From: Escherichia coli | Lineage (GTDB): Bacteria > Pseudomonadota > Gammaproteobacteria > Enterobacterales > Enterobacteriaceae | Assembly (NCBI RefSeq): GCF_965641715.1 | Contig: NZ_OZ282453.1 | Length of the DNA stretch: 64,000 bases | Reading direction: 5' to 3' (one strand) | Shown: in pieces, positions 1,800 to 5,204 of the stretch | Numbering within the stretch: position 1 is the first letter of the stretch | Layout: every line of letters starts with the position of its first letter | Position numbers and translations under genes: made by a program | Notes under the pieces: generated by a model | What the model was told of the DNA's origin: nothing | Seen by the model: the letters and a program-made list of their open reading frames with translations, nothing else | Databases searched by the model: none

Positions 1800-1933
1800 C
1801 TTAGATATCCTTATAAAAGACGATATTTCATTATCGGTAAATCGGCTTTGCGGGAAATCTCCGGTTACGGACGTAAAGATATAATCTTTTTTAAAACAAT
1901 GAATTAAAAAATTAATCTGCTTATTTAATTTTC

Positions 1934-1949
1934 TGGCACGACGGTTGCA
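1934..1949 (+). promoter_or_regulatory. sigma54 (-24/-12) promoter of the rtcBA operon
   Basis: TGGCAC-N5-TTGCA (tggcacgacggttgca) with GG at 1935-1936 and GC at 1947-1948, about 37 bp upstream of the rtcB ATG and facing it. Matches the sigma54 consensus exactly. Confidence 0.8.
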
Positions 1950-1985
1950 ATTATCAGGACATACCAACGAAAAGAGAAAAACAAA

Positions 1986-3212
1986 ATGAATTACGAATTA
2001 CTGACCACTGAAAATGCCCCGGTAAAAATGTGGACCAAAGGCGTGCCGGTAGAAGCCGATGCGCGTCAGCAACTTATTAATACGGCGAAGATGCCGTTTA
2101 TTTTCAAACATATTGCGGTAATGCCTGATGTACACTTGGGTAAAGGTTCCACCATTGGTAGCGTGATCCCGACCAAAGGGGCGATTATTCCGGCGGCGGT
2201 GGGCGTGGATATTGGCTGTGGAATGAACGCGCTGCGTACCGCGTTAACGGCGGCAGATCTGCCTGAAAACCTGGCGGAGCTGCGTCAGGCGATTGAAACT
2301 GCGGTGCCGCACGGGCGTACCACTGGCCGTTGTAAACGTGATAAAGGCGCATGGGAAAACCCGCCTGTTAACGTCGATGCGAAATGGGCTGAGCTGGAGG
2401 CCGGTTATCAGTGGTTAACGCAAAAATATCCGCGTTTCCTTAACACTAACAACTATAAACACCTGGGAACGCTGGGAACGGGTAACCACTTTATTGAAAT
2501 CTGCCTTGATGGGTCGGACCTGGTGTGGATTATGCTGCACTCCGGTTCACGCGGAATTGGTAACGCCATCGGGACTTACTTTATCGATCTGGCGCAAAAA
2601 GAGATGCAGGAAACGCTTGAAACATTGCCGTCGCGTGATCTGGCGTACTTTATGGAAGGTACGGAATACTTTGATGATTACCTGAAAGCCGTGGCCTGGG
2701 CGCAGCTTTTTGCCAGCCTTAACCGCGATGTGATGATGGAAAACGTAGTAACGGCGTTGCAGAGCATTACGCAGAAAACGGTCAGACAGCCACAAACGCT
2801 GGCGATGGAAGAGATCAACTGTCACCACAACTATGTGCAAAAAGAACAGCACTTTGGTGAAGAGATCTACGTGACGCGTAAAGGCGCGGTGTCTGCGCGT
2901 GCTGGTCAATATGGAATTATTCCAGGGTCGATGGGAGCGAAAAGCTTTATCGTCCGTGGGCTGGGAAATGAAGAGTCGTTCTGTTCATGCAGCCACGGTG
3001 CCGGGCGGGTAATGAGCCGTACTAAAGCGAAAAAACTGTTCAGCGTGGAAGATCAAATTCGTGCCACCGCGCATGTGGAATGCCGTAAAGATGCCGAAGT
3101 GATCGACGAAATCCCGATGGCGTATAAAGATATTGATGCGGTGATGGCGGCACAAAGCGATCTGGTGGAAGTTATCTATACCCTGCGTCAGGTGGTGTGC
3201 GTAAAAGGATAA
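1986..3212 (+). CDS. rtcB: RNA-splicing ligase RtcB (408 aa)
   Basis: ORF 1986..3212 begins MNYELLTTENAPVKMWTKGVPVEADARQQLIN, with His/Cys metal-ligand pattern typical of RtcB. Stop codon directly abuts the rtcA start. Confidence 0.95.
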   Translation: MNYELLTTENAPVKMWTKGVPVEADARQQLINTAKMPFIFKHIAVMPDVHLGKGSTIGSVIPTKGAIIPAAVGVDIGCGMNALRTALTAADLPENLAELRQAIETAVPHGRTTGRCKRDKGAWENPPVNVDAKWAELEAGYQWLTQKYPRFLNTNNYKHLGTLGTGNHFIEICLDGSDLVWIMLHSGSRGIGNAIGTYFIDLAQKEMQETLETLPSRDLAYFMEGTEYFDDYLKAVAWAQLFASLNRDVMMENVVTALQSITQKTVRQPQTLAMEEINCHHNYVQKEQHFGEEIYVTRKGAVSARAGQYGIIPGSMGAKSFIVRGLGNEESFCSCSHGAGRVMSRTKAKKLFSVEDQIRATAHVECRKDAEVIDEIPMAYKDIDAVMAAQSDLVEVIYTLRQVVCVKG

Positions 3213-3855
3213 ATGATGAAAAGGATGATTGCGCTGGATGGTGCACAGGGCGAAGGTGGCGGGCAGATCCTGCGCTCGGCGCTGAGTCTGTCGATGATAA
3301 CCGGCCAGCCATTTACCATCACCGGCATTCGTGCCGGGCGGGCAAAACCGGGACTGTTGCGCCAGCATCTGACCGCGGTAAAAGCAGCTGCGGAAATTTG
3401 TAGGGCAACGGTGGAAGGCGCGGAGCTGGGGTCGCAGCGTCTGGTCTTCCGGCCCGGCACCGTGCGTGGCGGCGATTACCGCTTTGCTATCGGTAGCGCA
3501 GGAAGTTGTACGCTGGTGCTGCAAACGGTGCTGCCCGCGCTGTGGTTTGCCGATGGACCTTCGCGTGTTGAAGTGAGCGGCGGTACCGATAACCCGTCGG
3601 CCCCGCCTGCGGATTTTATCCGCCGGGTGTTGGAGCCGCTGCTGGCGAAAATAGGAATTCATCAGCAAACCACGCTGTTACGTCACGGTTTTTACCCTGC
3701 CGGAGGCGGCGTGGTGGCAACGGAAGTCTCGCCGGTGGCATCGTTTAACCCCTTGCAACTTGGCGAGCGCGGGAACATTGTGCAGATGCGTGGAGAGGTG
3801 CTACTGGCTGGTGTGCCACGCCATGTTGCTGAGCGTGAAATCGCTACACTGGCGG

Positions 3856-3865
3856 GGAGTTTTCC
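3856..3865. repeat. Left copy of IS186 target-site duplication (GGAGTTTTCC)
   Basis: Identical 10-mer sits immediately outside both IS ends (3856-3865 and 5205-5214). True length could be 10-12 bp because the IS end bases are ambiguous. Confidence 0.85.
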
Positions 3866-5204
3866 CATAAGCGCTAACTTAAGGGTTGAACCATCTGAAG
3901 AATGCGACGCCTCGGTGCCTCGTTAAGACGATGCCTCGCGTTCTTCAATTGCGTTTTGTAGGCTGTCAGGGATACTGTCCCACGAATGGCCACCTGTAAG
4001 CTCCAGATGACCATTTTTGTTATTCTCCACAACGAGTTAGTTCTTCTTTTCGGATCCGGCACTTCTGGGGGGGAAATCCAGCGATGGCTGGATTATGTCG
4101 TCAATTAAAAATGCGGCGAGTAGATTAGCAAATATCCACGCTTTCGCGAGTTCAGGTTCCTTTGCACGCAAAGCATCCAGGTGCAGCAAACTTTTGAGCC
4201 GCTTAAAAGCCAGTTCAATTTGCCATCGCAGACGGTAACAATCAGCCACTTGCTCTGCTGAATATTCATCTTCCGGTAATGATGTTAGCAATAGCACATG
4301 GCCCGCTGCTTCCAGCGTTTCCGCCTGAACTACTCGTCCTTTTCGACGATTCTCGCTGAGCAGTCGGGTTTTACTGATTAATGCTTTTTCGGGAGGAAGT
4401 GATACGGCAATGAGACGTGCCGGAAAGGGAGCTCCGGCTTTTTTATTACCTGAATTGCCTATCATTACAGTGGTTTCACCGTTCTTACCGCAATCCAGCC
4501 CGCGCAGAAAACCCATCATGTCAAAGCGCATTCCTTCTGCAGTTAACCAGCGCAATCCTCGCCAGTGAACCCGGACGATATAATCAGCTTCTCCAAAAGC
4601 AAGTGAGCGGATACATTCGGGACGCGAACCGAATCCCCGGTCAGCAATGCGTATCTCGTCTGCCGTTTGCGCAAATCGGTCCAGCCGTTCAGCGTCTCTG
4701 CTGTCGGTTAGCTCAAAATCAGTGAACTGACAGGTATGAGGATCATATCCCATATGTAGTCGCCATTCAGCGCTGCCGCCCCCGGGCGCACTGATTGCTG
4801 TTCCATCGACAAGACGCAATCTCTTTCCGCTTGTACAACCCGTAACTGCGGCGCGTACAGCAAGTGTTTGTGCGGCAAGTATGCCAAACCAGTCGGCGGC
4901 ATTCCGCAGCCGCTTCAGGAGAGCCACGTCAGATAATGTTGCAACGTCATGGAGCTGAGCCCATGCAGTGACTTCACGTAATGACATCCCCCCGGGGCCG
5001 TAAGCCAGCCCCAGACGTAGCAGAGTTGCAGCATCACGAATTTCGCGGCGGCGGGTTAGAGCCCCGGCATTACGTGCCGAAGTATCCAGTTCTTCGGGCT
5101 TACCAATATGGGCCAGAATTGCTGACCAGTTATCGTGAGAGTAATTCATCGGCACGTTAAATCATATCAGGCGTAATACCACAACCCTTAAGTTAGCGCT
5201 TATG
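3866..5204 (-). mobile_element. IS186 (IS4 family) insertion sequence, complete, about 1339 bp
   Basis: Perfect 23-bp terminal inverted repeats CATAAGCGCTAACTTAAGGGTTG at 3866-3888 and reverse-complemented at 5182-5204. Single transposase ORF inside. Flanked by a 10-bp direct repeat. Confidence 0.92.
4037..5155 (-). CDS. insL: IS186 transposase (InsL-type, IS4-family DDE transposase; about 370 aa from the ATG at 5147-5149)
   Basis: Translation MNYSHDNWSAILAHIGKPEELDTSARNAGALTRRREIRD... matches the IS186 transposase as I recall it. C-terminal YRLRWQIELAFKRLK resembles the IS4-family Y-R-E-K signature. Confidence 0.9.
   Translation of the reverse strand: MPMNYSHDNWSAILAHIGKPEELDTSARNAGALTRRREIRDAATLLRLGLAYGPGGMSLREVTAWAQLHDVATLSDVALLKRLRNAADWFGILAAQTLAVRAAVTGCTSGKRLRLVDGTAISAPGGGSAEWRLHMGYDPHTCQFTDFELTDSRDAERLDRFAQTADEIRIADRGFGSRPECIRSLAFGEADYIVRVHWRGLRWLTAEGMRFDMMGFLRGLDCGKNGETTVMIGNSGNKKAGAPFPARLIAVSLPPEKALISKTRLLSENRRKGRVVQAETLEAAGHVLLLTSLPEDEYSAEQVADCYRLRWQIELAFKRLKSLLHLDALRAKEPELAKAWIFANLLAAFLIDDIIQPSLDFPPRSAGSEKKN

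Follow-up and report, generated by a model that had tools for sequence, protein, structure and literature searches.

How does an RNA-repair operon respond to stress once its cyclase gene has been broken while the genes for its ligase and its activator are left whole? This question is raised by the rtc locus in a 64,000-nucleotide (nt) stretch of Escherichia coli DNA (contig NZ_OZ282453.1 of assembly GCF_965641715.1; hereafter the window), in which the cyclase gene rtcA is split by the insertion sequence (IS) IS186. Across positions 1-8329 the genes run glpR (3' end), rtcR (- strand), intergenic region, rtcB, interrupted rtcA and malT (- strand), which is the order found in K-12 (glpR-rtcR-rtcB-rtcA-malT). 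The locus is a canonical E. coli Rtc RNA-repair locus with a divergent rtcR, a sigma-54 promoter and an rtcB-rtcA operon, an arrangement said to have been described for K-12 in 1998, and it is a member of the RtcR-regulated rtcBA operons with a pseudogenised rtcA. The K-12 operon, together with rtcR and the sigma-54 promoter, is treated by Engl et al. 2016 (PMC5175333) and Kotta-Loizou et al. 2022 (PMC9650030). The best explanation of the locus as a whole, to which we give a probability of roughly 0.8, is a recent, target-driven IS186 hit that made rtcA null and left ligase-only induction that depends on the stimulus. The coordinates of the features are collected in Table 1.

The inserted element is 100% identical to K-12 IS186A over all 1339 bp and ends in 23-bp terminal inverted repeats without mismatches (3866-3888 and 5182-5204, sequence CATAAGCGCTAACTTAAGGGTTG); RefSeq labels the same element "IS4-like element IS421 family" or "IS186/IS421". 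Its transposase scores 133 bits against the IS4-family transposase model NF033592 (cutoff 115), and the gene has the same length as K-12 insL1 (1113 nt). All features tested for IS186 were found, namely identity to the reference, perfect repeats, a single open reading frame (ORF) for a DDE protein of 370 amino acids (aa), and a target duplication within GGGG-N6/7-CCCC. The three K-12 copies, IS186A, B and C, likewise measure 1339 bp each between the inverted repeats; the RefSeq mobile_element features, at 1345 bp, thus take in 3 bp of the duplication at each end.

The empty site was rebuilt in silico by deleting the IS and one copy of the duplication, which gave an rtcA free of frameshifts and stops, and relatives were found through the exact RtcB protein. 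The rebuilt sequence is 100.000% identical over 7651 bp to one sister strain (L007, GCA_021646925.1), in which rtcA is whole (338 aa) and the site, GGGGAGTTTTCCCC, is empty, and it differs at 2 positions from a second one (L009), in which rtcA is also intact. The same left junction was observed in two further assemblies (L003, GCA_965259455.1, 100% over 3990 bp; L011, GCA_900479145.1, 1 mismatch), the contigs of which end inside the IS. The insertion was a clean cut-and-duplicate event with a 10-bp duplication. From these comparisons the IS is the sole lesion and its arrival very recent, later than every point substitution in 7.6 kb of flank; the best explanation is a single transposition of IS186 into rtcA at codons 215-218.

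The target itself offers a reason for the choice of site. A consensus derived from the three K-12 copies, all of which (3/3) lie in cGGGGA-N4-TCCCC with 10-bp GG-N6-CC duplications, agrees with the empty site GGGGAGTTTTCCCC. No second GGGG-N6-CCCC occurs in the reconstructed window and none at all in the present one, and shuffles are expected to contain 0.57. K-12 and most E. coli carry GGGGAGTTTTTCCC at this position of rtcA, whereas the lineage of the window has a T-to-C change (Ser217Pro, one of 11 substitutions between K-12 RtcA and the reconstituted protein), through which a near-consensus IS186 target becomes a perfect one. IS186 would therefore have picked codons 215-218 because the allele of this lineage holds the perfect preferred target cGGGGA-N4-TCCCC. 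Work from 2001 reportedly gave a target consensus for IS186 with which the motif derived here agrees, and named the lon promoter of E. coli B as a hot spot; that hot spot is a promoter, whereas the target in the window lies inside a coding region. Most simply, the lesion arose from the target preference of IS186, with neutral or mildly deleterious effect, and is not a designed regulatory change.

Other E. coli have been hit at the same place. Among 5426 complete genomes, 13 carry IS186 at this position of rtcA, two in the orientation of the window and 11 in the opposite one, and RefSeq complete genomes with an annotated rtcA::IS186 pseudogene include ET5, JNEC-KY203, MS 124-1, LR-33, HH35, 572, ECKH-505, 2022S01-140 and others. 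Eight IS-bearing complete genomes were fetched, comprising ET5 and JNEC-KY203 (same orientation) and six with the opposite orientation, and all eight have the K-12-type allele GGGGAGTTTTTCCC (T5) and an 11-bp duplication GGAGTTTTTCC. The six differ from one another at 0-2 flank positions and may represent one clonal event. The flanks of ET5 and JNEC-KY203 are 95.5-97.8% identical to those of the window; inheritance of the insertion in common with these two strains was considered and rejected, given flanks that differ by 2-4.5%, the 11-bp duplication and the other allele. There have been at least three independent IS186 insertions at this position, because two orientations occur on the K-12-type allele and the lineage of the window differs from these in both its allele and the length of its duplication. 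Translation enters the IS in a shifted frame on the K-12-type allele, which gives a fusion protein of 220 aa (ending GSFSHKR) in either orientation of the IS, versus 236 aa in the window. In a collection of 15 billion proteins, the 220-aa fusion and its close variants are found on 237 + 12 + 5 + 1 contigs (about 255), and the window-type 236-aa fusion on three (exact on two, the variant P0011 on one). Neither rtcR nor rtcB is damaged in any of the IS-bearing genomes inspected.

In the window rtcA is disrupted, as the initial annotation had it; IS186 stands after codon 217. The gene starts at 3216 (alternative ATG at 3213), three bases past the rtcB stop, and is interrupted after 3865; position 3926, given as an end in that annotation, is the stop codon of the fusion ORF of rtcA' (the truncated gene) with the IS and not a natural gene end. 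The predicted 236-aa product matches positions 1-219 of 338 in the NCBIfam cyclase model, and in Pfam only part of RTC, with RTC_insert unmatched. It is thus predicted to be without most of the insert domain and without the C-terminal part carrying the adenylylated His308, a loss of about 36% of the protein. The reconstituted RtcA has 338 aa with both RTC and RTC_insert domains and matches the E. coli RtcA crystal structures 3KGD, 1QMH and 3TUT; with the gene split at 3865/5205, no 338-aa cyclase including His308 is encoded downstream of rtcB. For the orphaned 3' part, no start codon or promoter of its own was identified. H308A has been used as the catalytic mutant of RtcA (PMC5175333). Since it has lost the histidine that accepts the nucleotidyl group, along with about a third of the fold, the truncated RtcA is, judging from its sequence, almost certainly dead as a cyclase, and we infer that the strain is an rtcA null with functional rtcB and rtcR.

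The initial annotation had also described rtcR and rtcB as full length and divergent, with a perfect TGGCAC-N5-TTGCA promoter facing rtcB, and each of these statements holds. RtcR scores 851 bits against the NCBIfam equivalog NF038308 (cutoff 650; residues 1-527), with the RtcR/CARF domain PF06956 at 2-185, the AAA+ domain Sigma54_activat PF00158 at 187-354, a Walker A motif GPTGAGKS at 215 and GAFTGA at 265. RtcB matches Pfam PF01139 with 441.8 bits over residues 29-408, and D75, C78, N167, H168, H185, R189, H281, H337, R341 and R345 are all present; those other than His337 are reportedly catalytic or metal-binding according to mutagenesis by the Shuman laboratory. For the guanylylated His337, H337A is the catalytic mutant of RtcB (PMC5175333). 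Both proteins are 99% identical to their K-12 counterparts, with 4 substitutions apiece, and exact matches occur in public contigs (RtcR on 34, RtcB on 41). The pattern TGGCACNNNNNTTGCA (TGGCAC-N5-TTGCA) has one match in the 64-kb window, at 1934-1949 (+); dinucleotide shuffles are expected to give 0.07 matches, and 7 of 100 shuffles contained at least one. Its -24 and -12 elements are base-for-base those of the K-12 rtcBA promoter, and the rtcB ATG lies 36 nt downstream. Compared with sister strains whose operon is whole, the window shows no change in rtcR, the promoter or rtcB.

Engl et al. used the 175 nt upstream of rtcB as promoter plus regulatory sequences (PMC5175333), and an upstream activating sequence (UAS) and an IHF site are mentioned for the rtcBA regulatory region (PMC9650030). 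A search of 1780-1990 for direct and inverted repeats that could mark an RtcR UAS or an IHF site returned only AT-rich low-complexity pairs and no convincing UAS. Compared with K-12, the intergenic region has 2 substitutions upstream of the promoter, and the 5' untranslated region (UTR) of rtcB (1961-1966) has a 2-nt deletion and 2 substitutions just 3' of the -12 element. This variant UTR sits near the expected transcription start and is also present in the sister strain L007 with its intact operon. Unlike the Salmonella rsr-yrlBA-rtcBA version of the locus, which has a structured RNA, the window showed no Y-RNA-like or other structured RNA in an Rfam scan of 1-9000 on both strands, where nothing reached gathering thresholds.

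RtcA itself takes part in the activation of RtcR. In E. coli, catalytically active RtcB is indispensable for every RtcR-dependent induction of PrtcBA, and RtcA is needed in mazF, ybaK and ahpC backgrounds but not in gor and yobF (Kotta-Loizou et al., PMC9650030, Table 1). In Salmonella, deletion of rtcA left induction 4.8-fold lower in truA cells but not in ruvA cells and lowered basal expression, and RtcA overexpression raised expression; Hughes et al. attribute the effect to RtcA turning 3'-phosphate ends into 2',3'-cyclic-phosphate ones, the resulting tRNA halves being ligands of the CARF domain (PMC7790460). Conditionally required for induction, RtcA is therefore part of a feed-forward signalling loop. 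In the strain of the window, transcription and translation of rtcB would suffer no polar effect of the insertion, because rtcB is promoter-proximal. Ligase-only expression would then follow from stresses that yield cyclic-phosphate ends directly, the RtcA-independent class exemplified by gor, yobF and ruvA-type DNA damage, and stimuli that depend on RtcA (mazF, ybaK, ahpC, truA) would induce more weakly or not at all. The earlier claim that the strain makes the ligase without the cyclase under RtcR-inducing stress thus stands in part: the required parts are intact and the cyclase gene is broken, but the outcome is conditional, RtcA being needed for some stimuli.

The best proxies for the phenotype are the Keio K-12 and Salmonella rtcA deletions, in which, as in the window, the cyclase is lost and the ligase and activator are kept. 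They differ in being in-frame, whereas in the window an N-terminal fragment of 236 aa is still encoded, 1.3 kb of IS DNA bring in a convergent gene, and the 3' part of rtcA is left as an orphan. Deletion of rtcA in K-12 changed 524 genes at least 4-fold and gave a 3-fold greater spread in soft agar (PMC5175333), and the strain of the window would be expected to resemble it in altered motility and altered ribosome- and translation-related expression.

Several points weigh against conditional ligase-only induction in an rtcA null. The functional consequences are extrapolated from the K-12 and Salmonella deletion mutants and may carry over imperfectly. If stable, the 236-aa RtcA' fragment could continue to bind the CARF domain of RtcR, a binding that does not need catalysis (PMC9650030), with effects unlike those of a clean deletion. 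Convergent transcription of the transposase gene or the changed 3' end could alter rtcB mRNA levels. Finally, the rtcB 5' UTR of this lineage differs from that of K-12 just downstream of the -12 element, and the wild-type rtcBA promoter has been reported to be very weak in vitro.

In a first alternative explanation the insertion switches off the whole Rtc system, with no feed-forward start under most natural stresses and rtcB at background. RtcA is indeed needed in three of the five RtcR-dependent E. coli conditions tested (PMC9650030) and in truA Salmonella, where basal expression also falls in rtcA-deleted cells (PMC7790460). The same outcome may be reached through the transcript if the rtcB-rtcA' mRNA is destabilised by antisense transcription, by Rho acting on the untranslated IS part, or by loss of the native 3' hairpin. 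As previously annotated, the transposase gene is antisense to the operon (5149..4037 on the - strand) and converges on it, and the rtcA' ORF ends at 3926, with untranslated RNA beyond. For the possible effect on rtcB mRNA stability raised in the initial annotation, however, the sequence offers neither support nor contradiction. The 5594-5619 hairpin between rtcA and malT, presumed to be the native 3'-end structure, now lies 1.3 kb further off, and the terminator-like hairpin at 4419-4448 inside IS186 (RNA fold -16.5 kcal/mol, z = -2.05) is a possible new 3' end for read-through transcripts of rtcB-rtcA'. Total loss of the locus is evidently tolerated, since about 10% of E. coli genomes have lost it: rtcA is contiguous in 4839 of the 5426 complete genomes, and in most of the remaining ~580 a deletion has left only the final 41% of rtcA, fused to what remains of the rtcR 3' end, so that natural loss of Rtc is common.

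Against a switch-off stand the conditions in which induction does without RtcA (gor and yobF mutants, ruvA Salmonella), the position of rtcB upstream of the insertion, and modelling in which RtcA inhibition perturbs the Rtc system far less than inhibition of RtcB or RtcR (PMC12606134). Nor does the transposase gene have a recognisable consensus promoter: a sigma-70 consensus scan of 1700-5800 gave 2 matches versus 3.7 expected from shuffles, none in the right end of IS186 and none facing outward. Low-level antisense read-out into rtcA' may nevertheless occur, because the 12-bp hairpin 3' of the transposase stop has no U-run. Since both orientations of the IS occur naturally (11 of 13 opposite), orientation at the site looks unconstrained, which argues against a strong orientation-specific effect. 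On balance we regard a complete switch-off as unlikely, although it deserves to be taken seriously.

A second alternative, implied by the initial annotation, leaves regulation unaffected, with normal ligase and no cyclase under any RtcR-inducing stress. It draws on the intactness of rtcR, the promoter and the promoter-proximal rtcB and their identity to those of sister strains with a complete operon. RtcA, however, contributes to RtcR activation in a stimulus-dependent manner (PMC9650030, PMC7790460), and regulation therefore cannot be fully unaffected; we consider this alternative distinctly improbable.

The recurrence of rtcA::IS186 could also be selected and not merely target-driven. Codons 215-218 would then be a hot spot at which insertion uncouples the cyclase from the ligase arm and dampens or retunes RtcR feed-forward signalling, with motility as one possible beneficiary, and the RtcA fragment might dock on the CARF domain. 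The three or more separate hits on this exact position, the ~255 contigs with the K-12-type fusion, the preservation of rtcB and rtcR in every IS-bearing genome inspected and the 3-fold greater soft-agar spread after rtcA deletion (PMC5175333) are all in keeping with selection. IS186 target specificity nevertheless suffices to explain the recurrence, the frequency is low (13/5426), the near-identical flanks of the six fetched genomes among the 11 with opposite orientation fit one clonal event, and the window-type event is confined to three contigs. Selection is thus very improbable in our estimation; were it at work, the site would act as a mutational switch and the 236-aa fragment would be a possible non-catalytic modulator. 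That the IS in rtcA is an assembly artefact, a collapsed or misplaced repeat, has next to no probability: as a multi-copy element IS186 interrupts draft contigs (L003 and L011 both end in it), but the insertion has both of its junctions, its perfect 10-bp duplication lies at a consensus target, the left junction is repeated in two independent assemblies, and equivalent insertions occur in 13 closed genomes.

The significance of the locus is modest. The lesion is ordinary and the understanding of the Rtc system itself is unchanged; both components and the kind of event were already known, equivalent rtcA pseudogenes being annotated in RefSeq; the literature searched contained no mention of IS186 together with rtcA. 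What is added here is that the insertion is dated, its target motif named, rtcA shown to be a recurrent IS186 hot spot and the regulatory inference corrected. As such, rtcA joins the list of natural IS186 hot spots, which bears on pseudogene calls and contig breaks at this locus, and the strain forms with its L007-type sister (0 differences in 7.65 kb of flank) a natural isogenic pair for testing the conditionality of RtcA outside K-12.

Table 1 Features of the rtc locus in the window (strand and basis as assigned in this analysis)
Feature	Coordinates	Strand	Basis or remark
rtcR, sigma-54 enhancer-binding activator, intact, 532 aa	201..1799	-	NF038308, PF06956, PF00158
rtcR-rtcB intergenic regulatory region	1811..1985	+	the 175 nt 5' of rtcB
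Sigma-54 promoter core TGGCACGACGGTTGCA, TGGCAC-N5-TTGCA (-24 GG, -12 GC)	1934..1949	+	unique match; identical to K-12
rtcB, RNA 3'-phosphate/5'-OH ligase, intact, 408 aa	1986..3212	+	Pfam RtcB
Truncated rtcA' (codons 1-217, 3216-3865, plus 19 IS186 codons)	3216..3926	+	translation; stop 3924-3926
Target-site duplication, left copy GGAGTTTTCC, 10 bp	3856..3865	.	
IS186 (IS4 family), 1339 bp	3866..5204	-	inverted repeats; 100% identity to K-12 IS186A
IS186 transposase gene (insL type, 370 aa, DDE_Tnp_1)	4037..5149	-	NF033592, PF01609; convergent with and antisense to rtcBA
Terminator-like hairpin GCCGGA...TCCGGC (4419-4438) followed by TTTTTTATTA	4419..4448	+	inside IS186; consensus scan
Target-site duplication, right copy GGAGTTTTCC, 10 bp	5205..5214	.	
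Orphaned rtcA 3' part (residues 215-338, including His308)	5207..5581	+	translation; NCBIfam cyclase model 215-338
8-bp hairpin AGCCGGAT...ATCCGGCT between convergent rtcA and malT	5594..5619	.	fold -12.2 kcal/mol, z = -2.2
malT, 901 aa, convergent neighbour	5624..8329	-	ORF list; K-12 synteny

The allele that carries the insertion is a divergent one. The best identity of the rtc locus (window 1-3865) to any of the complete genomes is 98.5%, whereas the segment 28000-34000, 25 kb away, reaches 99.8% with strains whose identity at rtc is no more than 98.1-98.2%, which suggests from the comparison of sequences that the rtc allele is a polymorphic or recombined segment. The low best identity at rtc prompted the thought of a Shigella or otherwise heavily IS-laden background, which was rejected, as the window contains no other repeated element, the segment 28000-34000 is 99.8% identical to ordinary E. 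coli, and exact matches exist among E. coli draft assemblies.

Further variation was observed around the locus in other strains. An example of the deletion genomes is NZ_AP022044.1 (2631-3417), where everything from the 5' part of rtcR through the sigma-54 promoter and rtcB to the 5' part of rtcA is gone and malT has an internal stop. In NZ_CP019944.1 (strain DSM 103246), rtcR is split by the IS4-like ISVsa5 (IS10-type), another independent IS lesion in the rtc locus. Two strains with the same RtcB protein as the window (L008 and L010) carry, between an rtcA of 342 aa and malT, a two-gene cassette (6809-7563) consisting of a 92-aa PF08681 TacA1-like antitoxin and a 161-aa ORF, which is not in the window. 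Plasmid records in the E. coli collection gave 24 to 44 matches to rtc-locus DNA. On the other side of rtcR, glpR is a pseudogene in MG1655, a known peculiarity of K-12, and the glpR 3' end in the window (1-219) corresponds to that of the whole 252-aa gene in other strains.

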